Assembly (NCBI GenBank): GCA_022707425.1
Contig: JAKJAQ010000002.1
Coordinates: 29,868 to 93,867, forward strand
DNA: 64,000 nucleotides
Origin: Candidatus Babelota bacterium
Lineage (GTDB): Bacteria > Babelota > Babeliae > Babelales > JACPOV01
Direction: 5' to 3'
How positions within the stretch are numbered: position 1 is the stretch's first letter; every line of letters begins with the position of its first letter. A program made the translations under genes and the position numbers. Below, piece by piece: positions 803 to 40,914 of the stretch. The notes beneath the pieces were generated by a model. It did no database searches. It saw nothing but the letters and a program-made list of their open reading frames with translations, and was not told the origin of the DNA.

Positions 803-1534
803 TTATTTCGTTTCTTCAATTAATTGAGCTAATTTATCCTTTTGGGCTTTGTTTGAGATATCAAAAAACTGCCCTACTAATTTTGAGTTAACCGATTTAA
901 ACAGTGCATGATAATGTGGCTTAAATGAACTGAATTGTTCATTTTGCATTAACTCTACTGCTGCTTGGCCATTGACCAGAATTCGCGCAACTAACACCAA
1001 AGCAGTATCTTTCGTTAGTTTTTTTCTCGCGTCATCAATTGTTTTAAGTGAGTTTATCAGTTTCTGCAACGTACCAAATCTTGCTAAGTTTTCATTTCGC
1101 GTCACTCGATTTGCCATTAACCCAACGTGCTCAGATACTTTTGTGCCAATAGTCATAATTCCATCAAGATTTGAAGTTTGAGCAATTAGTGGCAACTGAC
1201 GGTTATAAATTTCTATCGCTAAATCATTAACGGCTACAGAATCAACAAATTGTTTTGCTATCGCTAACGCATTTTGATACAAAGCAATACTTTCAGCATT
1301 TTTGTCCGCAGCTTGTGCAAGTCTTGCTCGGTCAATCAAATCTTCAATATCACTAACTGCTTTTGCAATTTTATTTTCTTCCGGAGTCCGCGTTATATGA
1401 GTGATTACATTCTGAAATTCAGCAAGCAGCGCTCGTAGATCATCAAGATTATTTATCAATGCATCATTTTGCATTGAGCACAATTGAGTGCTCAAGAAGA
1501 GAGTTATGCAACTCACTATTTTTTTTGTTTTCAT
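803..1534 (-). CDS. hypothetical alpha-helical protein with N-terminal signal-like leader
   Basis: 243-aa ORF with SD AAGGAG 7 nt upstream of the ATG. Leader is MKTKKIVSCITLFLSTQLCS followed by MQ. No domain recognised. Confidence 0.6.
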   Translation of the reverse strand: MKTKKIVSCITLFLSTQLCSMQNDALINNLDDLRALLAEFQNVITHITRTPEENKIAKAVSDIEDLIDRARLAQAADKNAESIALYQNALAIAKQFVDSVAVNDLAIEIYNRQLPLIAQTSNLDGIMTIGTKVSEHVGLMANRVTRNENLARFGTLQKLINSLKTIDDARKKLTKDTALVLVARILVNGQAAVELMQNEQFSSFKPHYHALFKSVNSKLVGQFFDISNKAQKDKLAQLIEETK

Positions 1535-1666
1535 ACCAAACTCCTTATTTTTTTTAATCGTACTCTTTGTAAATTAAATTAAACAACAATAAAAAATAAG
1601 TTTCGATTTGTTGCAAATTGCAAATAATATTTTTTACACTTATTAATAGAAAATGAAAGGGAAAAT

Positions 1667-1927
1667 GTGAAGCAATTCTATTTTTCAATTTTAATCATAT
1701 CGTTTTTCATAGGGTCTAGTTATAGCGATGAAAATTGCATGGATAACAGTCAACATACTGATATTTGTGACGGTTTTGATTACAAAAAATATTATTATGT
1801 AAACGATTGTGATTGTCCTTGTGAACGGTATGAACGATCATACAAACGATTACGTTGCGAGCGTTGTTTACATTTTAATGTACCGCGTGAGCGCGTAATG
1901 GGTTGTTATGCTAACTTGGAACGGTAA
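1667..1927 (+). CDS. small Cys-rich protein with signal-like leader
   Basis: GTG start preceded by AAAGGGA. Hydrophobic leader, then 9 Cys including CDCPC and CERC. The 3' end overlaps the ppsA 3' end by 22 nt. Confidence 0.5.
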   Translation: MKQFYFSILIISFFIGSSYSDENCMDNSQHTDICDGFDYKKYYYVNDCDCPCERYERSYKRLRCERCLHFNVPRERVMGCYANLER

Positions 1928-4317
1928 CGAAGTAAAAATGGAATTACTTGATCAGGATTTAATGAGATTGAATCGATACCGATCTTAATCAAAAAATCAC
2001 CAATTTCAGGATAATCTGATGGTGCTTGTCCACAAATACCACTATGTTTCCCATTCTTGGTCGCACCTTCAACAGCCATTTGCATCATTTTCATCACTGC
2101 AGGGTCCCGCTCATCAAACAATTGAGCGAGAAGTGCCGAATCACGATCAACCGCTAACGTTGTTTGTGTTAAATCATTTGATCCAATAGAAAATCCGTCA
2201 AAAAAGGCGCTAAACTCGTTAATCAAAATTACATTCGATGGTATTTCACACATCATGTACAGTTGCAAATTATCTTTTTTTCGTTCCAAACCGTTTTTTT
2301 TGAGAAGATCAATTACTTTTTGTGCTTCGATAAGGGTTCGCACAAACGGTATCATTAAAATAATATTTGAAAAACCCATTTCATCACGCGCTTTTTTCAT
2401 TGCGCGACATTCAAGTGCAAACGCTTTTTCGTACCACGAACTGTAATAGCGAGAAGCGCCGCGCAATCCAAGCATCGGATTTTCCTCTTGTGGTTCAAAC
2501 AATTGGCCACCAATTAAATTACGATATTCGTTACTTTTAAAATCTGAAAAACGAACAACTACCGGTTTTGGATACAATGCTGCCGCAATTGAGCCAACTC
2601 CTTGCGCAAGACAATCAACAAAAAACGATTGTGGATCTTTATAACCCTCGATCAAATCAGCAATTGCTTTTTTAATTTTTTTATTATTAATTTTATTCGG
2701 TTCAACTGCCACCATAGGATGCATTTTAATGCGATTGCTGATAATAAATTCTGTTCGGGCGAGCCCAACACCATCGATTGGTAAAAAGGAAAGATGAAAT
2801 GCACGATCCGGTTCTGCAATATTGATTAGCACATCAACCGGCAGTTCGGGCAAGGAACTTATATCAACTTCTTGCTTGTGAAACTGAATAATTCCTTTAT
2901 ACACATATCCTTGCGATCCTTGCGTACAATCAACTGTAATTTCATTACCATTTTTTATTAACTTCATTGCATCGAACGCACCAACAACCGCCGGAATTCC
3001 CAACTCACGACTTACAATTGCAGCATGACTTGTTCGCCCACCACGCTCGGTGACAAGTGCAGCTGCTTTTTTCATAAGTGGTACCCAATCAGGGTCGGTC
3101 ATGGGAGCGATGAGGATGTCACCTTCATTGAATGAATCAATGTCCTTAATGTTATTTGCTACGCGCGCTCTGCCTGATGCAATTGATTGTCCAATACTTT
3201 GCCCGGTCACTATGCACAATTGTTCCTTTTGCGCATCTGACAGTTTAATTTTATAGGTCAATGCAAAAGCACTCTTTTTTTCCATAGCATGAACTGTTTC
3301 AGGGCGTGCTTGCACAATATACAACTGTCCATCCACACCATCTTTTGCCCATTCAACATCCATGGGCATCCATTTGTCATTGAGCTGACTGTAATGTTGC
3401 TCAATTATTAACCCGGCTTGTGTCAATTGGAAAATTTCATCATCAGTAATACAAAACTGTTCTCGCTCTTTGACAGTTGTAGCAATTTGCTTAACCGTAG
3501 TTTTTGCATTTTTTTTGTTGTAGACAAGCTTGATTTGTTTTGATCCGCGATTTTTTTTAATCAGTGAACGAAAACCTTGTTCAAAGGTGGGTTTGTGTAC
3601 CCAAAACTCATCTGGGGTGACTAATCCTTTTACAATTGTTTCGCCAAGTCCCCACGATCCATTAATTATCACAACATCTTTAAAACCTGATTCAGTGTCT
3701 AACGTAAATAAAACGCCTGAACACCCCTTATCTGATCGCACCATTTTTTGCACACCAATAGAGAGCGCAATTTTCATGTGTTGGAATTTTTTTTCTACAC
3801 GATACATGATCGAACGATCGGTAAAAAGTGAAGCGAAACTTGAAAGACAATTTTTAAGCAGTTCTTCTTCACCAGTAATATTTAAAAATGTTTCTTGTTG
3901 ACCGGCGAATGAAGCACCTGGCAAATCCTCAGCTGTTGCAGAAGAACGCACCGCTACCGCGCATTTTTTTTGGTTATACATTTCACCTAATTGTTTGTAT
4001 GCTTGCCTAATTTCGCTTGCAAGATCTGCCGGAAGCGTACCGTGTTCAATAAGTGATCTAATTTCTGCACCAACCCTTTTTAATACTTCTAAGTCGGTTT
4101 TTTCGTTTATTTGTACAAGTAATTGTGAAATAGTTTCAGTCAACTTATTATAGTTCAAAAAATACCAGTAAGCATCTGCAACAATCGCAAATCCATTGGG
4201 AACACGTATATTTTTTTTGCTCAATGAATTTAACATTTCGCCCAGTGAGGCAGTTTTTCCACCGACAGCGGCCACATCTCGCATTCTAATTTCAGAAAAA
4301 AAGCGAATATATTGCAT
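1906..4317 (-). CDS. ppsA: phosphoenolpyruvate synthase (pyruvate, water dikinase)
   Basis: 803 aa. N-terminus VAAVGGKTASLGEM, phosphohistidine region GGRTSHAAIVSRELGIPAVVG, and a C-terminal PEP-utilising domain with SIGSNDLTQ. SD AAAGGA is present. Confidence 0.9.
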   Translation of the reverse strand: MQYIRFFSEIRMRDVAAVGGKTASLGEMLNSLSKKNIRVPNGFAIVADAYWYFLNYNKLTETISQLLVQINEKTDLEVLKRVGAEIRSLIEHGTLPADLASEIRQAYKQLGEMYNQKKCAVAVRSSATAEDLPGASFAGQQETFLNITGEEELLKNCLSSFASLFTDRSIMYRVEKKFQHMKIALSIGVQKMVRSDKGCSGVLFTLDTESGFKDVVIINGSWGLGETIVKGLVTPDEFWVHKPTFEQGFRSLIKKNRGSKQIKLVYNKKNAKTTVKQIATTVKEREQFCITDDEIFQLTQAGLIIEQHYSQLNDKWMPMDVEWAKDGVDGQLYIVQARPETVHAMEKKSAFALTYKIKLSDAQKEQLCIVTGQSIGQSIASGRARVANNIKDIDSFNEGDILIAPMTDPDWVPLMKKAAALVTERGGRTSHAAIVSRELGIPAVVGAFDAMKLIKNGNEITVDCTQGSQGYVYKGIIQFHKQEVDISSLPELPVDVLINIAEPDRAFHLSFLPIDGVGLARTEFIISNRIKMHPMVAVEPNKINNKKIKKAIADLIEGYKDPQSFFVDCLAQGVGSIAAALYPKPVVVRFSDFKSNEYRNLIGGQLFEPQEENPMLGLRGASRYYSSWYEKAFALECRAMKKARDEMGFSNIILMIPFVRTLIEAQKVIDLLKKNGLERKKDNLQLYMMCEIPSNVILINEFSAFFDGFSIGSNDLTQTTLAVDRDSALLAQLFDERDPAVMKMMQMAVEGATKNGKHSGICGQAPSDYPEIGDFLIKIGIDSISLNPDQVIPFLLRYRSKLA

Positions 4318-4424
4318 GCAATCCTTTACCCTTCAATCATAATTATTCTTTGTCTTGAAAAAAAATCTATTTTTCATACACTATGCACTAATTGTAGTAC
4401 AATTATTTTTAACAACACTATACC

Positions 4425-4613: not shown

Positions 4614-4647
4614 AAATGGGGAAGTTTTCCTTCCCCATTTTTTTTAC
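4614..4647. terminator. bidirectional rho-independent terminator
   Basis: Stem ATGGGGAAG / CTTCCCCAT with loop TTTTC. It is flanked by an A-run and a T-run and lies between convergent genes. Confidence 0.65.
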
Positions 4648-5096
4648 TTTGTTCGTTTATAAGTTCCCATCAATTCTGCTTTTTCAAGAATATGTCCTTT
4701 CATCGCTTTCATCAATTGATCCACTGTTGGTCGCGAAGGAAATGTCAGCATTGAATCTAATGCAAAAAGCTTAAAAAAATAACGATGTTCGCCTTTGGGA
4801 GGACATGGTCCATAAAATTGTGGTTTCCCCGAATCAGAAATACCTTCTTGTGCACTGGGCATAGATGAAACACGAACATTTTCTTCAAGTCGCCGCACCG
4901 TTGCTGGAATATTGTACACTAACCAATGCACCCATGTTTTTTTTGGGGCATCGGGGTCATCAACAATAAGCACAAAGCTTTTTGTTTCTTTTGGCACCCC
5001 TTCCCACACCAATTCAGGCGAAGCATCTTCACCATCACAGGTGAATTTACTGTTAATTGATTGACCATTCTTAAAAGCAGGACTCATTAATTTCAT
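4644..5096 (-). CDS. YbhB/YbcL (PEBP, Raf-kinase-inhibitor-like) family protein
   Basis: MKLMSPAFKNG aligns with the YbhB N-terminus as I recall it. DDPDAP and GEHRYFF motifs are present. GGAGG lies 7 nt upstream of the ATG at 5096. The longer TTG-initiated ORF to 5171 would add a hydrophobic leader. Confidence 0.8.
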   Translation of the reverse strand: MKLMSPAFKNGQSINSKFTCDGEDASPELVWEGVPKETKSFVLIVDDPDAPKKTWVHWLVYNIPATVRRLEENVRVSSMPSAQEGISDSGKPQFYGPCPPKGEHRYFFKLFALDSMLTFPSRPTVDQLMKAMKGHILEKAELMGTYKRTK

Positions 5097-5331
5097 GGCA
5101 TAACCTCCATTCATGAAAAAAAAACACATTGCCAAAATAAGTTTTGAAAAACAATAATTATTTTGATTCAACGCAACACCTCACATTTTTTCCAACCATT
5201 ATTTAAGTCACTGTAACACAACAATTTCATTAATTTCCATAATCTGCACCTACAGATGAGTTTTCTAGATTTTTATTACGTTGATTGCTACGCTACATTC
5301 ATTAATTATTAAAAAAATAAGGAGAGAGTTC

Positions 5332-9850: not shown

Positions 9851-10507
9851 TTAAGCATTTCTCATTTTATTTACAATATCTTTAAGAGCCTCATCGTTAG
9901 GCTGAGCATTAACGAGACTTTCTGCATATCTGCGCGGTGAATAATTCAATAATGGATTTATCATATGCTGATCTGCACCATTGTTCAGTAACCAATCCAC
10001 GACGATCGGATTTCTATTATTAATCGCGGCCAAAAACGGTGAATTTAAACCACGTTGTTCATTCATATTAGCATTATTTTTTTTCAAAATTTCAGCCAAC
10101 GGAATATTATTTTTCTTAATTGCCTCAATGATTGGCGAAAAAAAGCTATTTTGTGCGTGCACATCGGCACCGAGTTTTAAGACAGTTTGTGTCATACTGA
10201 TATTTTGCTGACGCACAGTCATAACAAGCGGAGTTTGATTATCTTTTAATGCATTAATGTGTGCATTAGAAAATCCAACTTCAAGAATCACATCTTTAGC
10301 TTTGTTCTTCTCTAAAGCCTCAAACATTCTTGCAGTGGCTTCAGTTTCTTCTTCTCTGCTTGTTTTGAATTTTATTTGTTTAGCTTCTTCCTGAAGCGCT
10401 TCTCGTTTTCTTTTTAAGCGATTAATTTCATGGCGCTCAACGGACTCCATTGAAAAAAGAGTCGATCCGCATGTTACCAACATAATAACAGGTATAATAA
10501 ATTTCAT
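9851..10507 (-). CDS. ankyrin-repeat protein with signal-like leader
   Basis: GGAGG lies 5 nt upstream of the ATG at 10507. Leader MKFIIPVIMLVTCGSTLFS is followed by MES. ANK repeats are present (TPLVMTV..GADVHAQN, SPFLAAI..NGADQ). Confidence 0.8.
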   Translation of the reverse strand: MKFIIPVIMLVTCGSTLFSMESVERHEINRLKRKREALQEEAKQIKFKTSREEETEATARMFEALEKNKAKDVILEVGFSNAHINALKDNQTPLVMTVRQQNISMTQTVLKLGADVHAQNSFFSPIIEAIKKNNIPLAEILKKNNANMNEQRGLNSPFLAAINNRNPIVVDWLLNNGADQHMINPLLNYSPRRYAESLVNAQPNDEALKDIVNKMRNA

Positions 10508-10583
10508 AAAAACCTCCAAATACATTAATAATCCTTATAAGTAGCTCTATTGTAACAAAATAGTGACAAATGGTCAAAAGCAA

Positions 10584-12325: not shown

Positions 12326-12775
12326 TTATTCGTCAAAACTTTCTTTCGCCATTTTTTTTGCCAATTTTTGTATTGCATTTATTAAAGTACTATGTTGATT
12401 GTCAACGTGTTTTTTGCGATCATCAGCGCGCACAAACCCTTCATTACAATATTTACAAATATAATGTTTCTCTTTGGTGTGTACGCGCCTAATATGTTCA
12501 ATTCCATTATGCTTACGCTTGAATCTTTTTCCGCACCCTCCCCAAGTACATTTCCATGGGCGCTCATGTAATTGTTGATTCATAGCAGGTACTGTTGCCT
12601 GATTATTGTATAGCGATGATATATTTTCATCGGCAAAAACATTCAAAATAAAATGTTCGACGTTACTATCTACCGATGTCTCATAGTGTTGTTCAAATGC
12701 TTCTTCAGGATTGTTTTCTTCCATAGCTAAACAAAGAGTACATAATACCATGAACATTAATAATAATTTCTTCAT
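12326..12775 (-). CDS. tandem C2H2 zinc-finger protein with signal-like leader (eukaryote-like)
   Basis: Leader MKKLLLMFMVLCTLCLA is followed by MEE. Finger 1 is C-x4-C-x12-H-x4-H (CTWGGCGKRFKRKHNGIEHIRRVH). The linker TKEKHYIC resembles TGEKPYxC. Finger 2 is C-x2-C-x12-H-x4-H. Confidence 0.75.
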   Translation of the reverse strand: MKKLLLMFMVLCTLCLAMEENNPEEAFEQHYETSVDSNVEHFILNVFADENISSLYNNQATVPAMNQQLHERPWKCTWGGCGKRFKRKHNGIEHIRRVHTKEKHYICKYCNEGFVRADDRKKHVDNQHSTLINAIQKLAKKMAKESFDE

Positions 12776-12952
12776 TACCTTGTCCCCCAGCAAAATCCCT
12801 CTTTCATAATAACAAGAAGTCATGCTCGCTTGATATAGAGAGACGATAAAACATGCTCCATTGTTTTAAATTTAAAATTGCTTGCATCAGATAAATGGAC
12901 ACATTATCTTTTAAAATAGATTCACTCAGAAGATCGCTCAAAAAGGATTGTT

Positions 12953-14292: not shown

Positions 14293-15762
14293 TCACCATC
14301 CAAAACGCCACCTTGATTTTTTTTGATACGGATCAACAACCTTATGTTGATCGATCAACACCTTTTGCAACTCAATCGGTAATTGCTTAAATAGTTCTAA
14401 CTCAGAAGTTAATTTCACTTTATTTTGGTTAAAAAGATGGTGAATGAACAATCCCCTTCGCACACCAATATACTTTGTAAGATATTCATCATCCATTAAT
14501 TGCCAAAATCCCACCTTTTTATCAAATCCAACTGAAACTAATGAGTGATCATTAATAAATGAAACTGCCACTACTTTATCTGAATGACCCAAACAACTCA
14601 GTAATAATTCACCAGTCCCACTATTCCAAAGGCCAATCTTATAATCTGCACCCGCCGTTGCAACTAAATCTCCCGATTCATTAAATTTGGCATCCAATAC
14701 GCCAGCCTTATGCGCCTTTAATTGATGAATGATTTTTCCACTATGCGCATCCCAAATACCTGCTGTTCTATCATCACTTGCTGATACAATCCTATTACCA
14801 AACCGATCATAATTCAATGCGCGTATCCAATCGGTATGTTTTATTAATTGATGAACCAATTTTCCGTCAATGGTATTCCAGAGCAAAATCTTTCCGTCAT
14901 CAGAACCAGAAATCAATCGGTTTCCATCAGGTGAATAATTCACAACACGGACCATATCTTCGTGTCCAAAAAGTTGGAATTTCAAAGCATTGTTTTTCCA
15001 TAGTTTTACCATTCCATCAGCAGAACAGGTTGCATCGCCATCATGAGCAGGATGTGTTTGTACTGCAAAAATTACGTTGTCGTGTGCTTGAACATTTTCG
15101 GCAACAAGAGCGTTGTTTACAACATCAAATTGCGCACGTCTTCCTTCTTCAGTTACATAAATGATTTTTGATCCATCGGTAGTAAATTTTGCTGATCGTA
15201 CTTGACAACGCGAAGGAAAATATTGAATAATTTTTTTTACACTATCATAATAGCCGCTATTATCGAGTGTTATAAAAATAATTTTGTCACCATCATTATT
15301 ATAATGCAGCGCATTGATCGGACTATTTAACTGAATTTTGTTAATGGCATTCATTGATTGTGTATCAAAAAAAATTAAATCACCATTGTCATCACCGGTT
15401 ACAATATTCGTTTTATTTGGATGTACTGCAAGCGCATTTATTTCATCGGCATTACTATTGCAAACAGTAATTTTTTTTGGCAAACCAACTAATTTATCTT
15501 TAAGCAACAATGGCGCAAGCATTGGTGGTAAATCAGGATGATCCGTAATAAATCCTATTTTTTCATTTGAGAGTACCTGATCGAAAATATAGTTATATTC
15601 TCTTGCACACGCTTTTGCTGACAATTTCAATAATGATGGAATATCATTTTCTTTTTGGTTATTAATTGTCACTTCATTTATCGGAGGTACCACTAATTCT
15701 TTTTGTTCCATGCTTTGCAACGATCCAAAAAAAGTGACCAAAAAAAGCAAAAGTTTTTTCAT
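14293..15762 (-). CDS. WD40-repeat protein with signal-like leader
   Basis: Leader MKKLLLFLVTFFGSLQS is followed by MEQ. There are multiple WD repeats (SGSDDGKILLWN, SASDDRTAGIWD, TAGADYKIGLWN). The ATG at 15762 is preferred over the upstream TTG. Confidence 0.8.
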   Translation of the reverse strand: MKKLLLFLVTFFGSLQSMEQKELVVPPINEVTINNQKENDIPSLLKLSAKACAREYNYIFDQVLSNEKIGFITDHPDLPPMLAPLLLKDKLVGLPKKITVCNSNADEINALAVHPNKTNIVTGDDNGDLIFFDTQSMNAINKIQLNSPINALHYNNDGDKIIFITLDNSGYYDSVKKIIQYFPSRCQVRSAKFTTDGSKIIYVTEEGRRAQFDVVNNALVAENVQAHDNVIFAVQTHPAHDGDATCSADGMVKLWKNNALKFQLFGHEDMVRVVNYSPDGNRLISGSDDGKILLWNTIDGKLVHQLIKHTDWIRALNYDRFGNRIVSASDDRTAGIWDAHSGKIIHQLKAHKAGVLDAKFNESGDLVATAGADYKIGLWNSGTGELLLSCLGHSDKVVAVSFINDHSLVSVGFDKKVGFWQLMDDEYLTKYIGVRRGLFIHHLFNQNKVKLTSELELFKQLPIELQKVLIDQHKVVDPYQKKSRWRFGW

Positions 15763-15874: not shown

Positions 15875-16690
15875 TTATTTATAACGATGTGCGATTATTA
15901 ATCCTGCAATGTCTTTGTTAAAGCCACATCTGATTAATAATTTCGTCATTGTTATGAGTAATTCAGACCGTTTACTGATTAAAAAAGTACGCACTTTTTC
16001 TGTACCAATAGAAAGTGCGGTTTTTTTTGTTGTATTTTCAAGATCATACCGTGCGCCACAATACAACAACCATTTTACCATTTTATTAAATGACGTTTCT
16101 AGATGAGCTTGCTGATCCTTCTTAACTCGCGTCTTGAAATTAATATACCCATGTATAAGCTCATGGAGCGGCGTATTACCTTCACAATCCTGCATATTTG
16201 GGCCTGCACCTTTTCTGAGTACATTTTTAAATAGCGCAAATTGAATTGGGCTGCAAAATATTTCTTCATCTGCCGATACTATTGAATGCAAAGCAGTTCT
16301 GCCAAACGCATCGACACCATTAATATCCGCACCTCTGCTCAACAGTTCATTCACCAGAGATGGTTGTAGATAATAACAAGCTTTACAAAGTGGCAAATTT
16401 CCCTTGGTCGAAAGAAGATTGGGATCAATTTGCTGTTTGAGAAAAAAAGAAACAACGTTCCATTTACCTTTTTCTGTAGCATACGAAAGTGGCGTCATAC
16501 CCTTTTCTTGAAGAAATTGTTCATATAAATGATGCGCATTTGGTTGGTTGGCTCTGATTAATTGTTGAATATTTTTGTTCAGTGGATGTTTGTTTTTTAT
16601 AGCCAAAACTAATTCTTGCGAACTTGACATCGCACTGGTTACTTGAACAATAAAAACACACGATGCAATAATCGAAATAATTATGTTCAT
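15875..16690 (-). CDS. ankyrin-repeat protein with signal-like leader
   Basis: SD GAGGA. Leader ...VFIVQVTSA is followed by MSS. ANK repeats are present (GMTPLSYA, GADINGVDAFGRTALH, GNTPLHELI). Confidence 0.8.
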   Translation of the reverse strand: MNIIISIIASCVFIVQVTSAMSSSQELVLAIKNKHPLNKNIQQLIRANQPNAHHLYEQFLQEKGMTPLSYATEKGKWNVVSFFLKQQIDPNLLSTKGNLPLCKACYYLQPSLVNELLSRGADINGVDAFGRTALHSIVSADEEIFCSPIQFALFKNVLRKGAGPNMQDCEGNTPLHELIHGYINFKTRVKKDQQAHLETSFNKMVKWLLYCGARYDLENTTKKTALSIGTEKVRTFLISKRSELLITMTKLLIRCGFNKDIAGLIIAHRYK

Positions 16691-17433: not shown

Positions 17434-19344
17434 ATGAAGCGTCATCATTTTTTTTATTTTTTTTGTATCATTTCTTTTCAATTTTCTTTTATCACCGCAC
17501 AAGAAATCAAGCATGAATGTGGACTTGCGTTAGTTCGTCTTCTCAAACCCCTCGAATTTTATCAAGAAAAGTACGGCGACATGATGTGGGGATTAAACAA
17601 AACTTGTTTATTGCTTGAAAAACAGCGAAACCGTGGCCAAGATGGTGCGGGAATCGCTGTTATAAAATTTGAAATGCCGTTCGGCAAACATTACCTTAAA
17701 CGTTTACGCTTTGCGCAAGATTATGCGCTTGAACATCTGCTCGCATTTATTTCACAAAAAATAAAAGAATTTCCTACACGCACAATAATCGATTCATCCG
17801 CGTTGAAAGAGCAATTTGACTATGCAGGTGAAGTTTATCTTGGTCATGTACGGTACGGCACCTATGCAGGTCGCGGGATTGAATTTTGTCAGCCATGTGT
17901 TCATAAAAATAGCATTCCGGCAAAATGTTTAACCATTGCAGGCAATTTCAATATGACCAACAGTGACGAGTTGAAAAATGAAATCACCCAATGGGGGGTC
18001 GCACCAACGAGCGTTTCTGATACACAACTTATTTTACATCAACTCAGTTATCTTCTAGATCAAGAAGATGAAAAAAAATCACACGACAATGAATCATGTA
18101 CTATTGCATCTATTATTTCACAAGCAGCACACAATTGGGATGGCGGCTATGTATTTGCAGGGATGTTAGGTAATGGTGATGCATTTGTTTGTCGCGATCC
18201 GTCGGCAATCAGACCTGGTTTTTATTTTTTGAATGACGAAGTTTTTGCAGTGGCTTCAGAACGCGCAGCATTGGCCAGCGTTTTTAATATTTCGTATGAA
18301 GATATTAAAGAAATTCCCGCCGCTCATGTTATTTCGGTAAAAAAAGATGGAACTATTTCAATAACACCGTTTATGAATCCATTTGTCGCACGCCAATGTG
18401 TGTTCGAACGAATTTATTTTAGTCGCGGTCATGATCCTGCAATTTGTCAAGAACGAAAAAACTTAGGTAAACAACTTGCCGTGCGCATATTTGAGGAATT
18501 GAATCAGGACATTTCTCATACTCTCTTTTCATTTATTCCAAACACCGCAGAAATTTCCTTTTTGGGATTGACCGAAGAGCTTTCGCAACTATCATTTTTT
18601 CATCATCGCCAATTACTCTTCACCAAATTTCATGATCAGATTTCTGCTCAAGAAATTGATCAGCTTATGAACAAAAAAATACGCGCAGCAAAAGTAATTT
18701 ATAAAGATCAAATGCTCCGCACATTTATTAGTCATGAATCAACTCGTTCTGACCTTGCTTGCAACGTCTATGATATTTCAAAAGGTATCGTAAATGACGA
18801 TGATACACTTGTTGTTATTGATGATTCGATTGTACGCGGTACAACACTTAAAAATTCAATCATGAAACAATTAATTCAATTGCAACCGGCGCACATTATC
18901 GTTCTCAGTGCTGCACCTATGATTTTATATCCTGACTGTTATGGCATAGATATGAGTCAAATTGGTCATCTTATTGCGTTCAAAGCTGCGGTAGAATTAA
19001 CGCACGAGCGCGGTAATGCAAAATTATTTGATGAAATTTATCAAGAATGCATTGCACTACAAAAAGAAAAACATATTCAACACAATCCACTCAAAAAAAT
19101 ATATGAACAATTTTCTCAAACAGAACTTGAACAAAAAATTGCGCACCTTGTTACTCCCAATGTAAAAAACTGGAACGGATCAATTCGTGTTTTGTTTCAA
19201 ACAATCAATGGACTTCATGCAGCAATACCAGATTTTACCGGAGATTGGTATTTTACCGGCAATTACCCGACACCAGGCGGTTATAGAGTGTTAATAAACA
19301 GTTACATTAATTGGTACAACGGCATCGAAAAAAGATCCTATTAA
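17434..19344 (+). CDS. purF: amidophosphoribosyltransferase (long form) with hydrophobic N-terminal leader or propeptide
   Basis: AGGGAAG lies 4 nt upstream of the ATG at 17434; an alternative ATG is at 17410. The leader MKRHHFFYFFCIISFQFSFITAQEIKHE precedes the catalytic Cys in CGLALVRL. NRGQDGAGIA and the PRTase loop VVIDDSIVRGTT are present. Confidence 0.85.
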   Translation: MKRHHFFYFFCIISFQFSFITAQEIKHECGLALVRLLKPLEFYQEKYGDMMWGLNKTCLLLEKQRNRGQDGAGIAVIKFEMPFGKHYLKRLRFAQDYALEHLLAFISQKIKEFPTRTIIDSSALKEQFDYAGEVYLGHVRYGTYAGRGIEFCQPCVHKNSIPAKCLTIAGNFNMTNSDELKNEITQWGVAPTSVSDTQLILHQLSYLLDQEDEKKSHDNESCTIASIISQAAHNWDGGYVFAGMLGNGDAFVCRDPSAIRPGFYFLNDEVFAVASERAALASVFNISYEDIKEIPAAHVISVKKDGTISITPFMNPFVARQCVFERIYFSRGHDPAICQERKNLGKQLAVRIFEELNQDISHTLFSFIPNTAEISFLGLTEELSQLSFFHHRQLLFTKFHDQISAQEIDQLMNKKIRAAKVIYKDQMLRTFISHESTRSDLACNVYDISKGIVNDDDTLVVIDDSIVRGTTLKNSIMKQLIQLQPAHIIVLSAAPMILYPDCYGIDMSQIGHLIAFKAAVELTHERGNAKLFDEIYQECIALQKEKHIQHNPLKKIYEQFSQTELEQKIAHLVTPNVKNWNGSIRVLFQTINGLHAAIPDFTGDWYFTGNYPTPGGYRVLINSYINWYNGIEKRSY

Positions 19345-21765: not shown

Positions 21766-23641
21766 ATAAACGTGTATTGGTGTGTAACATCACCATATTG
21801 TTTTTATCACACGCTTCAATAATTTGTTGATCACGAACACTGCCACCTGGTTGTGCAATATAGCGCGCACCAAATTGTGCTGCCTTTTCAACATTATCTT
21901 CAAACGGGAAAAAGCCATCTGAAGAAACTGCAATGTTGCTCAGGTGTGCATAGGTTTTCAAAAATTCATTTTTTTCATTTTCAGTTAATGGTAAAACATG
22001 TAAAGGCGCAAACTGCGATCCTTTGACTAAAAGATGGTCAATATTTGTTCCATTAATAAAGTCGTTAATTGCATTGTTTCGATCTGGACGTTTGAGCGTT
22101 GCGTTAAAACATAATTGTTGGACTTTTGGATGATGACGCAAAATAAATTGCGCAGCCTTTTTTCCTGCAAGTTCCACACAATCAACTCTATTTTGCTGCC
22201 CTGCGCCAACACCGATTACTTGTAATGGTGTAGCATAGACCACAGAATTAGATTGCGTATATTTGGCGGCAATGCTCGCGAGTAATAATGCTTGTTTGGC
22301 TTCTTTTGGTAGGTATCGGTTTTTGGTAGTAACAACGTTTTTTTCACTTACTAAATCATGCGTGAGTTCACCTGAATTTGGTTGTTGTGTGAGTGCAACG
22401 CCAAATAGTTCACGAATTTCAAGATTATTATTGTTGCAATATGCTGGATCGACCTCAATAATTGAATAATTCCCTTCTTTTTTTGATTTGAGAATTTCTA
22501 ACGCTTCTGGTTCATAACCTGGCGCGATTATGCCATCACTCACTTCACGTTTGATCAATTGCGCAGTTTCCTGATCAACTTTATGACTGCATGCAATAAA
22601 ATCACCGAAAGAAGATTTTGGGTCTCCGTTGCGTGCTCGCAAAAAAGCGGTTGCTACAGCGGTCACTTCTCCGTCACTTTTCACATCGTATGCCGCCATT
22701 TCAGGATATGAAAGTGATGGCTCACCAATTCCAACACCAGCAGGTGATACGTGTTTATACGACGCGCAACACACAGTATTAAGATTTTCGCGTACTTCTT
22801 TTACTAACTGCCAACCAGTGATTGCATCAAGTAAATTAACATACCCAGGATTACCATTGAGAATCTTGAATGGATTGGTGCCACCATTAATTGCGTATAA
22901 TCCCGCATTTTTTTGATATGGGTTAAGACCATATTTTAAATTTTGTCCCAGATTATATTCTCTATAAAGAGTTTTGCCCGCTGAAAAAAAGTTTGCAATT
23001 GCAGCGTCGTAACGAGCGGTATGCTTAAAAGCTTTTAATGCAAAAAGTTGTTTTTGTTTTAAATCAAAAGATTCATTTTTTTCGAGAATTTGTTGGAATT
23101 TTTCATAATCTGCAGGATCTGAAATTACGATCACGTGTTGAAAATTTTTTGCAGCTGCCCGCAGTAATGTGACACCGCCAATATCAATATTCTCAACTGC
23201 GATATCCATCGATGCATTTTCTTTTTTTATTGCTTCCTCAAATGGATATAAATTGACAACCACAACATCGATCGCCGGAATGTCAAGTTGATCTAATTCT
23301 TGTTGATGTGTCGGCAAATTGCGATTAGCAAGAATTGCACCATGAATTTTTGGATGCAATGTTTTAACGCGCCCATCTAAAATTTCTGGAAATCCGGTTA
23401 AATCAGAAATTTTCAACAATTTTCGTTTTTCCCATTGAGATAAATTTTCTTCTAGAGAGCTGTAGGTACCTCCGGTAGAAATTATCGTATAGTTATTTTT
23501 AATGAGAGATTGAGCCAAAGGTAAAATGCCGTTCTTTTGAGAAACACTCAGTAATGCATATTTTTCTCTTTGCGTCTCTGATTCCATACAAAAACCATTG
23601 AGAGAAAAAAAAGAAATTAATAGCAGAAGTCTTTTCTTCAT
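21755..23641 (-). CDS. purH: bifunctional AICAR transformylase / IMP cyclohydrolase (ATIC-like long form) with signal-like leader
   Basis: AGGAG lies 6 nt upstream of the ATG at 23641. Leader MKKRLLLLISFFSLNGFC is followed by MESE. The MGS domain has ALLSVSQKNG and GRVKTLHP. The AICARFT domain has KHVSPAG, YTQSNSV, GAGQQNRV and FFPF. Confidence 0.9.
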   Translation of the reverse strand: MKKRLLLLISFFSLNGFCMESETQREKYALLSVSQKNGILPLAQSLIKNNYTIISTGGTYSSLEENLSQWEKRKLLKISDLTGFPEILDGRVKTLHPKIHGAILANRNLPTHQQELDQLDIPAIDVVVVNLYPFEEAIKKENASMDIAVENIDIGGVTLLRAAAKNFQHVIVISDPADYEKFQQILEKNESFDLKQKQLFALKAFKHTARYDAAIANFFSAGKTLYREYNLGQNLKYGLNPYQKNAGLYAINGGTNPFKILNGNPGYVNLLDAITGWQLVKEVRENLNTVCCASYKHVSPAGVGIGEPSLSYPEMAAYDVKSDGEVTAVATAFLRARNGDPKSSFGDFIACSHKVDQETAQLIKREVSDGIIAPGYEPEALEILKSKKEGNYSIIEVDPAYCNNNNLEIRELFGVALTQQPNSGELTHDLVSEKNVVTTKNRYLPKEAKQALLLASIAAKYTQSNSVVYATPLQVIGVGAGQQNRVDCVELAGKKAAQFILRHHPKVQQLCFNATLKRPDRNNAINDFINGTNIDHLLVKGSQFAPLHVLPLTENEKNEFLKTYAHLSNIAVSSDGFFPFEDNVEKAAQFGARYIAQPGGSVRDQQIIEACDKNNMVMLHTNTRLFTH

Positions 23642-28253: not shown

Positions 28254-28271
28254 CACTCTGCTCCTTCAATT

Positions 28272-28305: not shown

Positions 28306-28366
28306 CTTCAAAGCCAAGGTTACTCAAAAAAATAAAGAGATCAATAAACTTTGAAAGGAGAATATA

Positions 28367-29602
28367 GTGAAGTTACTGTTCATAAGTTGTATTTTCTCAT
28401 TTTGTTTATCACTGAATGCAAACGTATCAATTGGTTCGCCTCTCACGCCATCAGCAACGAAAGTATTGCTCTGCGGCGGTGGCGAATTAGGCAAAGAACT
28501 AGTTATTGAATTGCAGCGATTTGGTGTGGAAGTTATTGTTCTTGATCGATATGATAATGCACCGGCAATGCAAGTTGCACACCGCAGCCATACACTTTCA
28601 ATGCTCGATGGAAATGCATTACGCACCATTATTGAATTGGAACAACCAAACATTATTGTTCCTGAAATTGAAGCGATCGATACACAAACATTGTTAGAAC
28701 TTGAAAGCGAAGGATACACGGTCATTCCAACTGCTCGCGCTGTGCATATTACTATGAACCGTGAACGCATTCGCCAACTTGCACACGATCTTCAATTAAA
28801 AACATCAGCATTTAAATTTGCACATTCGTATGATGAATACCTATCTGCAGTCGACAAACTTGGTTTTCCTTGCGTTGTAAAACCAACGATGAGTTCTTCA
28901 GGAAAAGGCCAATCAATTATTCACAACAAACATGAAATTGATCCTGCATGGAACTTTGCACAAACTGGCGGTCGCGCGCAAACAAACAGCGTCATTGTTG
29001 AAGAATTTATTCCGTTTGATTACGAAATTACGCTGCTCACCGTGCGTGATGCGCAGGGAAACACTCATTTTTGTGAACCGATTGGCCACAAACAAATCGA
29101 CGGCGATTATCGCTCTTCATGGCAACCACAACCAATGAGCAACAATTTATTAGATCAGGCAAAGAATTATGCAAAAACAATTACTGACGCTCTGGGTGGC
29201 CGCGGCATTTTCGGCGTTGAATTATTTGTAAAGGGTGATGAAATTTATTTCAATGAAGTTTCTCCACGCCCGCATGATACCGGGATGGTTACGCTTATTT
29301 CACAAAATAGTTCTGAGTTTGGATTGCACGCACGCGCATTACTTGGTTTACCAATTGGTACCATTAAACACTATGGACCGAGCGCATCATGCGCAGTTCT
29401 TGTACACGGTAATTCAGAAAATGTTCAATTTTCAAATCTTGATACTGCACTATCTATTCCAGATTCGCAGCTGCGCTTATTTGGAAAACCAAATGTTCAT
29501 GGGCAACGCCGCATGGGTGTTGTTCTTGCACAAGGTGAAACCATCGAACAAGCGTTAGAACGAGCGCAAATAGTGGCGAGCAGATTATCAATTTCACTTT
29601 AA
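28367..29602 (+). CDS. purT: formate-dependent GAR transformylase (ATP-grasp) with signal-like leader
   Basis: AAAGGAG lies 7 nt upstream of the GTG at 28367. The ~21-aa hydrophobic extension (V)[20 protein letters not shown] precedes [23 protein letters not shown]. This segment and [16 protein letters not shown] match E. coli PurT as I recall it. Confidence 0.9.
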
Positions 29603-29615
29603 AAAAGGGAAAAAT

Positions 29616-30929
29616 ATGTTGATTACGTTTATTTTAGCTTCATTGTGCAATTTTTTATGCATTAATGCCGATCAAATTGCAGAAGGCAAAACGAAAATAA
29701 TTCGTCGGTATGCAGCTGACCAAACAAAAGTAATTATTGAATCAAAAGATGACATTACCTCAGGCGATGGGTACAAAAAACATGATATAATGCGCGGTAA
29801 AAGTGCACTTGCAAATCAAACAACATGCAATGTGTTTCGTTTACTTAAACAATGCAATATACCAGTTGCATTTGATGAGCAAATTGATCACAATAAATTT
29901 TTAGCACCCCAGTGCACTATGATTCAGTTGGAAGTTGTCGTGCGGCGCGCTGCACACGGCTCATGCTTAAAACGTTATCCACATCTGCGTAAGGCTGATG
30001 TTTTTCCACAACTCATCGTTGAATTTTTTCTTAAAACAAGTGGTAGACAATGGCAAGGAAGTCCAATCCCAAAAGATGATCCATTCATGATTATCAACAA
30101 TAATAAAGCGGATCTTTATCTACCCGATGCACCATTGCATTCACAACAACCGTTCTTAACGCTTGATACCTTTCCCTGCGATCAGCAACCAGAACTGTAT
30201 GATCACATGGCGCTTATTGCAAAAAAAACATTTCTTATTCTAGAAAAAGCGTGGCAACTGCAAGGTGGCCAGTTAGTTGATTTTAAAGTTGAATTTGGTA
30301 TCGATGCACACGGCAATTTATTGCTTGCTGATGTTATCGACAACGATTCATGGCGTGTTTTAAAAAATGAAAACTATATCGACAAACAATTTTATCGCGA
30401 TGGTGGTGAGTTAGATGCGGTAACAAAATTGTATGAACAAGTACAATCGCTAACCGCACGTTTTTCATTGCCAACGCAACAATTAATTATTTGGCGTGGA
30501 TCGGAAAAAGATGTCGTAGAACCGTTGCTTGAACAATGGAAATCGGCTCTTTCATGGCTTGATGTAAAAATTGTAACGATTTCGATGCATAAAGAACCGG
30601 TCAAAGGATATCAAGAATTGCAAAAAGCTCTGCAAGAAATTCCCAATTCAGTTATTGTTGCATTCATTGGGCGCAGTAATGGTGCGGGACCAACATTGGC
30701 AGCACAATGCACGGTGCCCGTAATTACCGTACCGGTAAATTGGCAACAATTTCCTGAAGATGTGTGGTCATCATTGCGCGCACCAAGTGATGTTCCTGTC
30801 CTTACCATTCTTGAACCCAATAATGCACTATTGGCTGCATTACAAATATTGGCAATGAACAACCCAGCATTGTATGCACAATTGAGAATGAATCAAGAAA
30901 AACGATTAATCAATACTTCGATTAATTAA
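29616..30929 (+). CDS. purC-purE: bifunctional SAICAR synthetase / class II AIR carboxylase (PAICS-like fusion)
   Basis: 437 aa. [39 protein letters not shown] and [12 protein letters not shown] form the PurC half. GRSNGAGP and [10 protein letters not shown] form the class II PurE half. SD AAGGGA. The N-terminus [18 protein letters not shown] is hydrophobic. Confidence 0.9.
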   Translation: [437 protein letters not shown]

Positions 30930-30944: not shown

Positions 30945-30985
30945 AGATGTACGCACGAATTGAAAAAAGTGCGTACATCTTTTTT
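30945..30985. terminator. bidirectional rho-independent terminator
   Basis: 12-bp stem AGATGTACGCAC / GTGCGTACATCT with an A-run before and a T-run after. It lies between convergent purC-purE and the 30985 gene. Confidence 0.65.
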
Positions 30986-31605
30986 CATTTAATATCGAAT
31001 TCTTTCAATGCTTCCACAAAATCGTCACCATACTTTCCACTTTGATACAATAATATTATTTTTTTTAACCGTTCTTCATAAAGCATTTTGGGTAATAAAT
31101 ACCGATTTTCTGCCGTTGAATCGGCCAATAACGCTCGCCATTCAAGTCCGCTGCATTTTTTGCTGGTTACTACGTTCAAAAGCCAACTCATTGCATTATA
31201 TTCTTCTGTTTGAAAAAGCAATGTGCGATCGCTTTTTTTAATTGATTCTGGTTGGACATCTATCACTTTCTGTTCAAGATCAATAAACAAATCAGCAAGC
31301 ATAATTTTTTGATTTTTACTTAACCATTCTGCATCTATTTGCGTGCGTACTTTAATTCGCCAAAACCACTCCAATGATTCATAAGCATTTTTTTTGTTAA
31401 GTTCAAAATATAATTTACCAAGCATTGCATTCACATCGGCACATTCAAGATTTACTTTTTTAACACCAGGACTTAATTTCTGGTATTCATCGGTTGCATC
31501 TTTATACAACTTTTGCAAATGTAACTTAGTTGATTCAATATTGTTGACTCGTTCTTCCATTGCAGTTAACGAGAACGCATACACTAATGCAATTATTTTT
31601 TTCAT
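30985..31605 (-). CDS. leader-bearing hypothetical protein, paralog A of a two-member family
   Basis: Leader MKKIIALVYAFSLTA is followed by MEE. It shares motifs with 32293..32892: MLGK, VQPESIKK/IQPQSIKD, C.GLEW, and RYLLPKMLYEERLKKI/KYLTPEYLRNERLKTI. Confidence 0.6.
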   Translation of the reverse strand: MKKIIALVYAFSLTAMEERVNNIESTKLHLQKLYKDATDEYQKLSPGVKKVNLECADVNAMLGKLYFELNKKNAYESLEWFWRIKVRTQIDAEWLSKNQKIMLADLFIDLEQKVIDVQPESIKKSDRTLLFQTEEYNAMSWLLNVVTSKKCSGLEWRALLADSTAENRYLLPKMLYEERLKKIILLYQSGKYGDDFVEALKEFDIK

Positions 31606-32292: not shown

Positions 32293-32892
32293 TTAATCTA
32301 ACTGTTCAGAATTATCCATTTTTTTTAATTGTCCATAGCTGGCAATAGTTTTGAGTCGCTCATTTCTAAGATATTCTGGCGTCAAATATTTGGTTGTCGA
32401 ATCAGGTTTTCCAAAAAGTGAGCACCATTCCAATCCTTCGCAGGTATTATTTTCAACGATTCCTTTGAGCCATTGGCGTGCTTGTAATCTATCAATGTCT
32501 TGTTGTTCAGATGGTAGCATATCCTTTATTGATTGCGGTTGAATTTCCATTACCATTGAATCAAGCTCTATTTTTAGTTCAGCATAAGTTTCTGCTTGTT
32601 TTTCATTCAGCCATTTATAATCAAGATAAGTTCGCTCTTTAAACCGCTTATAATAGTTCATGGCTGCTTCATGATCTTGTTCACCAAGTGCAACGACAAT
32701 TTTACCAAGCATCACAATGCAATCACCCTGTTCAAGAAATTTATGTCGCAGTTTAGGTCTCAATTCTACATAAATTTTACCCGCCTCCTTATAAACTTGA
32801 GCAAACTGTCTGCGAGTTTCCAGTACTTGTTCACCTTCTTCCATTGCATGAATGGGCATCACTAAAAAAAATAAAATAACTAATTTCTTCAT
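32293..32892 (-). CDS. leader-bearing hypothetical protein, paralog B of a two-member family
   Basis: AGGAG lies 6 nt upstream of the ATG. Leader MKKLVILFFLVMPIHA is followed by MEE. It is a paralog of 30985..31605. Confidence 0.6.
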   Translation of the reverse strand: MKKLVILFFLVMPIHAMEEGEQVLETRRQFAQVYKEAGKIYVELRPKLRHKFLEQGDCIVMLGKIVVALGEQDHEAAMNYYKRFKERTYLDYKWLNEKQAETYAELKIELDSMVMEIQPQSIKDMLPSEQQDIDRLQARQWLKGIVENNTCEGLEWCSLFGKPDSTTKYLTPEYLRNERLKTIASYGQLKKMDNSEQLD

Positions 32893-33151
32893 TGGATTCT
32901 CCTAGAAAAAACCTCAGACCAATTATTGGTACTACCATAATGGCAAATATCATTTTCAACAATATTTTTTCATAAAAAAAGCTGATGCATTATTGCATGC
33001 AGCTTCATTTTTTCGAAAAATTTCAGATAGCAAATTTGACATTTTTTTGTAATTTGTTATTCTTTAAAAGAATGGAAAATTGCAAATGGGGGATCAATTT
33101 CTATATCTATTCATTTTTTATCAAATTTGCTTGAAACTCTAAGGAATTACA

Positions 33152-34078: not shown

Positions 34079-34106
34079 TTTATAGAAAAAGCATAGAGGC
34101 AGTTAA

Positions 34107-35261: not shown

Positions 35262-35268
35262 ATTATTG

Positions 35269-39858: not shown

Positions 39859-39935
39859 TGGCGGAGCTGACGAGACTCGAACTCGCGACCTTCCGCGTGA
39901 CAGGCGGACGCTCTAACCAACTGAGCTACAGCTCC
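39859..39935 (-). tRNA. tRNA-Asp (anticodon GTC), CCA encoded
   Basis: Manual cloverleaf fold: acceptor GGAGCTG/CAGCTCC, D-arm GCTC/GAGC, anticodon loop CTGTCAC, T-arm GCGAG-TTCGAGT-CTCGT. 77 nt. Confidence 0.95.
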
Positions 39936-40059
39936 ATAAAAGAATTTCATTCGACTTCGCATAACGCTTGCGTCGCAATCACACCATTGCATCATTTTAT
40001 TCGATGAATGGCCTGCCCGGCATAGTTTGCCGAGTCTAACGACCCGGATAAACCAAGAC

Positions 40060-40135
40060 TGGCTCCGCGGGCTGGACTCGAACCAGCGACCCAACGATTA
40101 ACAGTCGTTTGCTCTACCGACTGAGCTACCGCGGA
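40060..40135 (-). tRNA. tRNA-Asn (anticodon GTT), CCA encoded
   Basis: Manual fold: acceptor TCCGCGG/CCGCGGA, anticodon loop CTGTTAA, T-arm GCTGG-TTCGAGT-CCAGC. 76 nt. Confidence 0.95.
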
Positions 40136-40223
40136 ACTCAATTTTATTATATTTCAATTTTATCACGCCTTAGCACTACGTGCAATGACGGATGGCCTGC
40201 CAGTCATTTCCTTCAGAAATGAC

Positions 40224-40299
40224 TGGTGGGCGGTGCAGGATTCGAACCTGCGACCCTCAGTTTGTAAGACTGATGCTCTACCAGCTGAGCTAACCGCCC
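40224..40299 (-). tRNA. tRNA-Val (anticodon TAC), CCA encoded
   Basis: Manual fold: acceptor GGGCGGT/ACCGCCC, anticodon loop CTTACAA, T-arm GCAGG-TTCGAAT-CCTGC. 76 nt. Confidence 0.95.
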
Positions 40300-40324
40300 C
40301 TTTTTTTCGTTACTAGACTACCAA

Positions 40325-40353
40325 ATTGTAAAAAAAAAGAGGTTAAAAGTCAA
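40325..40353 (-). promoter_or_regulatory. sigma70-type promoter of the tRNA Val-Asn-Asp operon
   Basis: On the minus strand: TTGACT (40353..40348), a 17-nt spacer, and TACAAT (40330..40325). This lies about 25 nt upstream of the tRNA-Val 5' end. Confidence 0.55.
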
Positions 40354-40740
40354 AACAAAAACAGCATAAATTATTTATTGTTATCGTTTGGCAAGTTATA
40401 CTCACCAAATAATTCTGAAACTTTTCAAAAAAAAATTTCCAGGCTTTCTCTTCATAGGCCCATTCACACGTCATTATTTCATATTTTTTCTGCCACAATG
40501 AGCATTTCTTTCTTTCAGCACAGCTACAAAAATTTTATCGAACCTACAGGGCAGCATTGTTCATGCTTTCCTAGTTATTCAAACTAAAAGAGTGTTGTAT
40601 AAGGAAATTATTCTACTGATAAACAAGATTATAGTGGGGGGATTAATTGACCAAGCTTTCAATTGCTTTAAAAAAGGCAAAAGATCAGCCTTTTTTTGAA
40701 AGATAAGGATTAATATAAAGCTAATGTGTATTAATAACCG

Positions 40741-40914
40741 TTAAAAGCCACCAGTATCACCATGGCGTACTTCATTGACGTCTTCCAACTCCGCAGCCAT
40801 CTCAAGATCGAAATAATATGAACCATCGTGTGAGGTTTGTTCCATTGATTGCGCATTAACCATACTATTAAATGCGAAACTGATAGTAATGATAACTAAT
40901 CGTAAATTCTTCAT
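40741..40914 (-). CDS. small (57 aa) acidic protein with signal-like leader, below the ORF-track size cutoff
   Basis: I translated it by hand as MKNLRLVIITISFAFNSMVNAQSMEQTSHDGSYYFDLEMAAELEDVNEVRHGDTGGF. AAGGAAA lies 5 nt upstream of the ATG. Confidence 0.4.
   Translation of the reverse strand: MKNLRLVIITISFAFNSMVNAQSMEQTSHDGSYYFDLEMAAELEDVNEVRHGDTGGF

Follow-up and report, generated by a model that had tools for sequence, protein, structure and literature searches.

Bacteria of the phylum Dependentiae (TM6) are intracellular parasites of protists. In one of them, Chromulinavorax destructans, a signal peptide is predicted in 44% of the coding sequences and in 78% of the ankyrin proteins, and Sec is the proposed export route (Deeg et al. 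2019, PMC6561590). We have analyzed a 64,000 nucleotide stretch of DNA from the same phylum (Candidatus Babelota bacterium, GCA_022707425.1, contig JAKJAQ010000002.1, positions 29,868 to 93,867; called the window in what follows) in which about half of the genes appear to encode comparable N-terminal leaders, and we describe a property of some of these leaders as follows: the residue predicted to lie directly after the cleavage site (position +1) is unusually often methionine, which we are inclined to read as the old initiator of proteins that once had no leader. The PurH protein of the window (21755-23641, minus strand) has a 100% identical counterpart in Candidatus Dependentiae bacterium ADurb.Bin331, the source named for records P0001 and P0121; a related locus (L032, GCA_041907565.1) has 94-97% DNA identity to window positions 22.3-45.3 kb, and the G+C content of the window is 33-42%.

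Leaders were recognized by a rule of our own, not by SignalP, which asks for a hydrophobic core within the first ~35 residues and a non-negative N-terminal charge; the cleavage site was then taken as the best -3/-1 score, with the identity of the +1 residue ignored except that Pro was penalized there. By this heuristic 31 of the 59 window genes (53%), including both of its ankyrin genes, are leader-like, compared with 47% of the genes in related loci and 119 of the 1228 genes (10%) in 1.3 Mb of non-Dependentiae control loci. The controls were drawn from a genome-collection scan with PurH, whose matches were Clostridia and one Pirellulales PurH and whose loci were reused for this purpose, and from a metagenome scan with a Dependentiae PurH alignment, in which the conserved patterns proved universal and no Dependentiae relatives were among the matches listed. 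Judged from these predicted N-termini, the large share of leaders in the window is in line with the published Dependentiae secretome picture (44% signal peptides in C. destructans, 53% leader-like genes here). The available portion of the C. destructans paper makes no mention of a +1 Met or of leaders on biosynthetic enzymes, and it describes nucleoside salvage and no complete metabolic pathway (PMC6561590), whereas the window has a purine cluster that is mostly leader-bearing.

What kind of leaders are these? Like Gram-negative Sec signal peptides, they begin with basic residues, continue into a hydrophobic stretch 10-15 residues long and have small residues at positions -3 and -1, and the early mature region is acidic. 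The positive N-region is MK(T/K)K, MKK or MKF in genes 803, 9851 (from Met7), 12326, 14293, 21755, 30985 and 32293 (genes are named by their lower coordinate), and in 15875 (MNIII) the terminal amino group is the sole N-terminal positive charge. By the heuristic an uncharged hydrophobic core (about 8-20 residues) is present in the 31 leader-like genes, among them all of the Met-bearing cases, and the junctions LCS|M, LFS|M, CLA|M, LQS|M, TSA|M, GFC|M, LTA|M and IHA|M are each the top-scoring site under the +1-blind -3/-1 rule, which looks for a small neutral residue at -1 and a small or aliphatic one at -3, without Pro at -1 or +1. In these features of sequence the leaders conform to signal peptides of the Sec / signal peptidase I type. 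Two other leader types were considered and rejected: there is no RR in any of ten leaders, as a Tat signal (S/T-R-R-x-F-L-K) would have, and the PurH ..LNGFC, 803 ..TQLCS and 12326 ..CTLCLA sequences misfit the [LVI][ASTVI][GAS]C lipobox of lipoprotein (signal peptidase II) signals. The leaders differ from usual Sec signal peptides in the Met at +1 and in their cargo, which includes ATP-dependent cytoplasmic enzymes and eukaryote-like repeat proteins whose export is predicted.

A first-pass annotation of this DNA had listed ten N-termini in which Met follows a hydrophobic leader, and translation found all ten quoted sequences at the genes it named. The cases are as follows, with leader and Met codon coordinates each checked by translation (SD, Shine-Dalgarno sequence; ORF, open reading frame; a vertical stroke is avoided in this list and the junction is marked by a slash):

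803-1534, minus strand: gene with leader MKTKKIVSCITLFLSTQLCS at 1475..1534; junction ..LCS/MQ, +1 Met codon 1472-1474; AAGGAG SD, spacing 6.
4644-5171, minus strand: PEBP, a doubtful case (5094..5171); TTG-started hydrophobic extension at 5097-5171, then Met26 at 5094-5096.
9851-10525, minus strand: ankyrin protein with leader ..MKFIIPVIMLVTCGSTLFS at 10451..10525; junction ..LFS/MES, +1 Met codon 10448-10450.
12326-12823, minus strand: C2H2 zinc-finger protein with leader MKKLLLMFMVLCTLCLA at 12725..12775, counted from the MKK start; junction CLA/MEE, Met codon 12722-12724.
14293-15762, minus strand: WD40 protein with leader MKKLLLFLVTFFGSLQS at 15712..15762; junction LQS/MEQ, +1 Met codon 15709-15711.
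15875-16690, minus strand: ankyrin protein with leader MNIIISIIASCVFIVQVTSA at 16631..16690; junction TSA/MSS, +1 Met codon 16628-16630.
21755-23641, minus strand: PurH, eukaryote-type (ATIC), with leader MKKRLLLLISFFSLNGFC at 23588..23641; junction GFC/MES, +1 Met codon 23585-23587.
30985-31605, minus strand: paralog of 32293 with leader MKKIIALVYAFSLTA at 31561..31605; junction LTA/MEE, Met codon 31558-31560.
32293-32892, minus strand: gene with leader MKKLVILFFLVMPIHA at 32845..32892; junction IHA/MEE, +1 Met codon 32842-32844.
40741-40914, minus strand: small ORF with leader MKNLRLVIITISFAFNSMVNA at 40843..40914; best site VNA/QS, Met 40843-40845 at +3.

The annotation's list of Met at +1 thus stands for the first nine genes and fails for 40741, where Met is at +3; among the nine, 30985 and 32293 are paralogs (33% identity) that should count once, and PEBP is doubtful. 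Met at +1 in 9 of the 31 window leaders (29%) compares with a background Met frequency of 1.5-2% (binomial p=6e-10) and with 1 of the 119 control leaders (Fisher p=2e-6), and the enrichment that the annotation had claimed is clearly present when the +1 residue is tabulated in window and controls. A conservative count, in which PEBP is dropped and the paralog pair is taken as one, gives 7/29 (p=1.4e-6). If the cleavage site is ignored and any Met up to 8 residues past the hydrophobic region is accepted, there are 10 cases where 4.9 are expected (p=0.017); this site-blind test is weaker, and the signal therefore resides in the exact position. Our gene pipeline deliberately favours upstream starts, yet it yields only the one case in the controls, so the pattern is not produced by upstream extension of ORFs. 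All nine cases lie within 803-32892, where they make up 9 of 21 leaders, and there is no Met at +1 in the ten leaders between 33 and 64 kb, which belong to proteins of the envelope or of the housekeeping region and include those of a GH1 glycosidase, a PAP2 phosphatase and a 1679-aa protein. The Met carriers are two ankyrin proteins, one WD40 protein, one C2H2 zinc-finger protein, ATIC-type PurH, PEBP and three proteins of unknown function; given their confinement to 803-32892, the added leaders would therefore mark accessory, formerly leaderless proteins.

But are the leaders translated? SD matches of 4-6 nt, mostly of the AAGGAG type, precede the upstream starts of 803, 9851, 15875, 21755, 30985, 32293 and 40741; by our rule none was found before the MKK starts of 12326 and 14293, and about a third of the window genes start without an SD. 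Within 3-11 nt of the internal Met no SD was found in nine of the ten genes, PEBP alone being the exception, and likewise none was found in relatives. With these exceptions the annotation was right that most upstream starts have an SD and the internal Mets do not. The public NCBI proteins contain the leader in PurH (628 aa), 32293 (199 aa) and the WD40 protein (489 aa; record P0127, which is 100% identical over 489 aa, likewise begins at MKK), and leader substitutions within the 32293 family remain hydrophobic. For most of the genes, then, the answer appears from these features to be yes.

The contrary explanation is that the junction Met is the true start, and that the "leader" is an open, T-rich upstream stretch which is hydrophobic by chance. 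PEBP has the look of such a gene: a GGAGG SD with a spacing of 7 precedes Met26, the upstream TTG start has only a weak GAGG, and the public gene call (150 aa) begins at Met26. Met26 is probably its true start, and PEBP a normal gene without a leader, preceded by an open hydrophobic stretch that is at most a proto-leader. The missing SD sites at the MKK starts of 12326 and 14293 point the same way, as does a TTG-started hydrophobic stretch before the called start of another WD40 gene, described below. As an explanation of the whole set, however, we find annotation artefact very improbable: the same pipeline gives 1/119 elsewhere, the upstream ATGs come after strong SD sites, proper basic, hydrophobic and cleavage regions can be recognized in the leaders, orthologs in which the junction Met is missing nonetheless keep a leader, and leaders are part of independent public gene calls.

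That other WD40 gene lies in the same genome, about 2.5-4.4 kb to the left of the window (L027, 11459-13426). Its TTG-started, uncharged hydrophobic stretch LNVLFFFCIFIASALNG has no SD and directly precedes the publicly called start MENTSP. From its sequence it may be an early stage, a leader in the making. In this genome the analysis reached 9 kb past the left edge of the window (L027); the gene at the right edge is on a 3.6 kb contig in the public assembly.

How might a methionine come to stand at +1? The account that we favour, with moderate confidence, is that leaderless proteins were extended at the N-terminus by Sec-type leaders and that the old initiator Met was left at the junction. 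In an intracellular-parasite lineage (Dependentiae, TM6) in which about half of the proteins have a Sec-type signal peptide, the ankyrin, WD40, C2H2 zinc-finger, ATIC-type PurH and orphan-family proteins of 803-32892, whose kinds are normally cytoplasmic or eukaryote-like, would each have gained such an extension, and the reading frame would now open at a newer start codon further upstream, served by an SD of its own. The 15-25 added codons would constitute a complete minimal signal peptide, so that the predicted signal peptidase site falls exactly at the junction and the former initiator Met is retained at +1. The acidic residue past this Met, usually Glu, would fit the acidic early mature region of the organism's other leader-bearing proteins. 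What the sequences show directly is the excess of Met at +1, the SD sites, the closeness of the Met to family N-termini and the presence of leaders in orthologs; cleavage at the junction, export of the proteins and the order of the evolutionary events are what we infer in this account.

We rank the added-leader account first because it alone predicts that the junction should coincide with family start positions, and it does so coincide as follows: In PurH, residue 3 of the solved PurH/ATIC chains falls on residues 24-27 of the window protein, which puts Met19 within about 3 residues of residue 1; leaderless PurH homologs open MTKYALISVS, MKTALISVS and similar (M(T/K)KYALISVS), and the nearest non-Dependentiae relatives of the window PurH are eukaryotic ATIC. 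In PEBP, the counterpart of Met26 in chains of the cytoplasmic type (3n08, 1fjj) is residue 1-4. To this precision the two alignments uphold the annotation's view that in PurH and PEBP the Met is the canonical N-terminus of the family. The PurD of one relative (L115, 2580-3899, minus strand) has the leader MNILSLILLNLSFVTYTHD and then MKVLIIGSGGREHALA, in the order leader-HD-MKVLIIGSGGREHALA, so that its Met lies two residues past the leader; it resembles the E. coli PurD start, which we take to be MKVLVIGNGGREHALA, and the PurD proteins of two other relatives have V or Q at the L115 Met position. In PurT, residue 22 pairs with residue 4 of the E. coli enzyme, so E. coli Met1 corresponds to Asn19, directly after ..SLNA. 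These four alignments argue that the leaders were added at, not inside, the old N-terminus, and by the sequences compared the junction Met is kept in some leader-bearing proteins and replaced in others.

A family with and without a signal peptide is familiar from E. coli, where YbcL (PDB 1fux) is presumably periplasmic with a signal peptide and YbhB (PDB 1fjj) presumably cytoplasmic. The window PEBP matches both chains, but only the 1fjj match extends to the N-terminus, and Met26 is the start of that leaderless type; unlike the E. coli pair, both possibilities are present here in one gene, whose upstream extension is probably unused (weak TTG). Eukaryotic organelle-targeted proteins offer a second parallel: it is generally known that cytosolic proteins have been relocated by N-terminal extensions, with the junction at or near the old N-terminus as here. 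The window differs in that it is bacterial, the leader is of the Sec type and not a transit peptide or presequence, and the direction is outward and not into an organelle. Inheritance of the leaders along with eukaryotic genes was rejected, as bacterial-type PurT and about half of all genes are also leader-bearing and no second targeting part follows the leaders.

The annotation had raised modular acquisition of leaders, possibly with a common origin of the leader DNA. The placement of leaders 5' of former start codons is borne out by PurH, PEBP, L115 PurD and PurT, but the modular or common origin is not: pairwise local alignment of the leader DNAs against codon-shuffled nulls gave only short, low-complexity, T-rich matches of 11-20 nt, known paralog pairs aside. 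A shared mobile leader module was rejected, the top pair (32293 and 19360) being a T run as judged by eye.

Does the junction Met persist in orthologs? Every one of the ten PurH relatives that are closest (47-55% identity) has a leader, alike in build and different in sequence (that of P0010 is visible only in a longer ORF of L030). Six of the ten are without the junction Met (they read A|TRYAL, A|TKYAL, A|QRYAL, A|SRYAL or A|QTAL), and since these six have neither that Met nor another start there, translation can begin only upstream. The Met is kept in 5 of the 11 PurH sequences, which on the PurH tree represent four deep lineages (P0001, P0002, P0006, P0007/8), and there were at least three losses; the retained Met has Glu or Asp next to it, and residues +3 to +8 are unalignable. 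In six members of the 32293 family (61-100% identity) A|MEEG is invariant and the next ~10 residues vary, and the paralog 30985 reads TA|MEER. A 43%-identical ankyrin ortholog reads ..IINS|MTTSKEL where window gene 15875 has A|MSSSQEL; giant ankyrin proteins dominated that representative search, which left one usable full-length ortholog (P0265). The homolog search with the WD40 protein returned generic WD40 matches and no ortholog with a comparable N-terminus. These comparisons suggest that the Met is not a purely neutral relic, and either a working second start or a favoured Met-Glu N-terminus may account for its persistence.

If the second start is a working one, the upstream and junction ATGs would both be used, giving an exported form and a leaderless cytoplasmic form, and the Met would be selected. 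Other bacteria are known to change the location of a product by initiating at an in-frame internal codon (review PMC13515050), and as in those N-terminal proteoforms an in-frame Met lies here just past a targeting sequence and could in principle relocate the product. The retention of Met in diverged orthologs and paralogs amid varying neighbours, the richness in U of the leader-coding stretch that precedes the internal AUG and the strong SD before the PEBP internal Met all speak for such use, and because many window genes begin without an SD, a missing SD does not exclude internal initiation. The internal Mets here nevertheless differ from the documented cases in having no ribosome-binding site except in PEBP, in the window and its relatives alike. 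In addition, six PurH orthologs have lost the Met with no substitute start at the junction, no use is obvious for cytoplasmic forms of ankyrin, WD40 or zinc-finger effector-like proteins, and PurF, PurT and PAICS bear leaders and have no internal start codon near the junction, so that dual starts cannot explain cytoplasmic purine synthesis in general. We consider a working second start unlikely.

The residue after the Met bears on the other possibility, that Met-Glu, Met-Asp or Met-Gln is favoured as the mature N-terminus once the leader is removed. Of the nine junction Mets, six have Glu as the next residue, as against 2 of 23 ordinary leaderless starts of the window (p=0.002). Residues +1 and +2 are mostly ME, MD or MQ, relatives included (A|MEE, A|MEP, A|MES, A|MD, SA|MELED), the motif is conserved across paralogs, and the carriers are mostly eukaryote-like proteins that are likely to act in the host. 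Such an N-terminus might be favoured as native-eukaryote-like, as non-destabilising under the host N-end rule in the host cytosol, where that rule acts on secreted bacterial proteins such as listeriolysin O, or for a later secretion step. On the other hand, the predicted +1 residue is Q, E or D behind many other window leaders, PurH orthologs manage well with T, Q or S there, the final location of the proteins is presumed, and proximity of the Met to family start positions is not predicted by selection of the N-terminus alone; we regard this explanation as distinctly improbable. About half of the non-Met window leaders have an acidic residue within +1 to +3, and we read an acidic residue near the junction as a general property of the early mature regions of this organism's putatively exported proteins.

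The leaders of the window are not confined to Met carriers. A de novo purine biosynthesis cluster occupies 17410-30929 and includes a eukaryote-type fused ATIC-type PurH and PAICS-type PurC-PurE as well as a PurM-PurD fusion, whereas published TM6 genomes were reported to be without any nucleoside biosynthesis genes (PMC4776705). Its genes are:

17410-19344, plus strand: PurF, leader MKRHHFFYFFCIISFQFSFITA at 17434..17499; no junction Met; QEIKHE follows, then the Cys of the ECG core start.
19360-21765, plus strand: PurM-PurD fusion, leader at 19360..19407 (VILFIILFSLMSTLNA, followed at the junction by ES); no junction Met.
21755-23641, minus strand: PurH (ATIC-type), leader present.
24652-25443, minus strand: PurQ, no leader here or in relatives.
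25407-28256, minus strand: PurL, no leader here or in relatives.
28367-29602, plus strand: PurT, leader of 18 aa at 28367..28420; Asn19 follows, the position of E. coli PurT Met1.
29616-30929, plus strand: PurC-PurE (PAICS-type), leader at 29616..29669 (MLITFILASLCNFLCINA, followed at the junction by DQ).

In relatives (L029, L030, L031, L032 and L114-L116) leaders are present on PurF, PurD (or PurM-PurD), PurT, PAICS and PurH wherever the 5' ends are readable, and PurL, PurQ, PurM and PurB are leaderless in the relatives sampled. The PAICS leader of one relative is MFFIIMMAGIIGLHA, with ES after the junction, and the L029 PurF likewise has a leader (..FLIA|GPKHEC). In amidotransferases of the PurF type the Cys of that core has to be a free N-terminal residue, so PurF would have to lose everything before it wherever the protein is located. 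If the leaders drive export, successive steps of purine synthesis would take place on opposite sides of the inner membrane. The options for the purine leaders are secretion into the host, a periplasmic location fed by host ATP, or leaders that are not simple export signals. It is possible, but in our judgment rather doubtful, that the leaders are real export signals and that the eukaryote-like proteins together with PurF, PurD, PurT, PAICS-type PurC-PurE and ATIC-type PurH have been moved to the periplasm or host, where they run on host ATP and metabolites, with the Met as a scar of re-targeting and possibly a second start.

Several of these observations weigh against the idea that the +1 Met is simply what is left of an old start codon after a leader was added. 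First, the Met is kept in diverged PurH, 32293-family and ankyrin orthologs, which makes some selection on it likely, as a neutral relic should decay more. Second, the excess of Glu after the junction Met means that the junction is not simply an unaltered old N-terminus. Third, in the more distant Dependentiae loci (67 genes, 32 of them leader-like) Met is at +1 in three leaders, a weak excess in which two of the three are PurH orthologs; counted as one independent case among about 30 leaders, this is no enrichment. Fourth, the cleavage sites come from our own -3/-1 heuristic, and neither from SignalP nor from experiment. Finally, leaders on five purine enzymes and none on PurL, PurQ, PurB and most PurM proteins are hard to square with simple export and a working pathway.

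Signal peptides and a very large predicted secretome were already known in Dependentiae. What the window adds is a visible scar of how part of that secretome may have arisen, namely by placement of a minimal leader before the start codon of leaderless, often eukaryote-like proteins. A Met at +1 that is aligned with the family start is a countable marker by which re-targeting events in parasite genomes could be listed and dated. In a limited literature search we found neither the +1 Met pattern nor leader-bearing purine enzymes described. The purine cluster may matter more than the Met itself, in that either its leaders are not plain export signals or part of nucleotide synthesis takes place outside the bacterial cytoplasm, and we regard this paradox as the most promising lead.

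A number of smaller observations concern the neighbouring genes. The small ORF 40741 is conserved in the close relative L032, and it belongs to a run of three neighbouring genes with a related leader (40741-42035), which is MK..(A/I)(L/V)VGLSFA..(V/I)NA|(Q/E) in 40987 and 41655 and ..SFAFNSMVNA|Q in 40741; the three look like a small group of tandem paralogs, and the L032 ortholog of 40987-41601 matches Pfam Fasciclin. When window positions 32744-35263 are compared with L032 9925-10149, the relative is found to be without genes 33152-34078 and 34107-35261, although it is 94-97% identical elsewhere; the first of these two genes is leader-like by our heuristic and the N-terminus of the second is hydrophobic. 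The 5' third of the 32293 gene has diverged in L032, and the 32293 family as a whole looks mosaic, with P0122 combining the window N-terminus with a P0123-like middle, which suggests recombination within the family. Leaders are also present on a GNAT acetyltransferase (37497-38267) and a family-1 glycoside hydrolase (43097-44485), members of families that are usually cytoplasmic. A cluster of tRNA-Asp, tRNA-Asn and tRNA-Val genes lies at 39859-40299 on the minus strand, and the ORFs listed over it are spurious.

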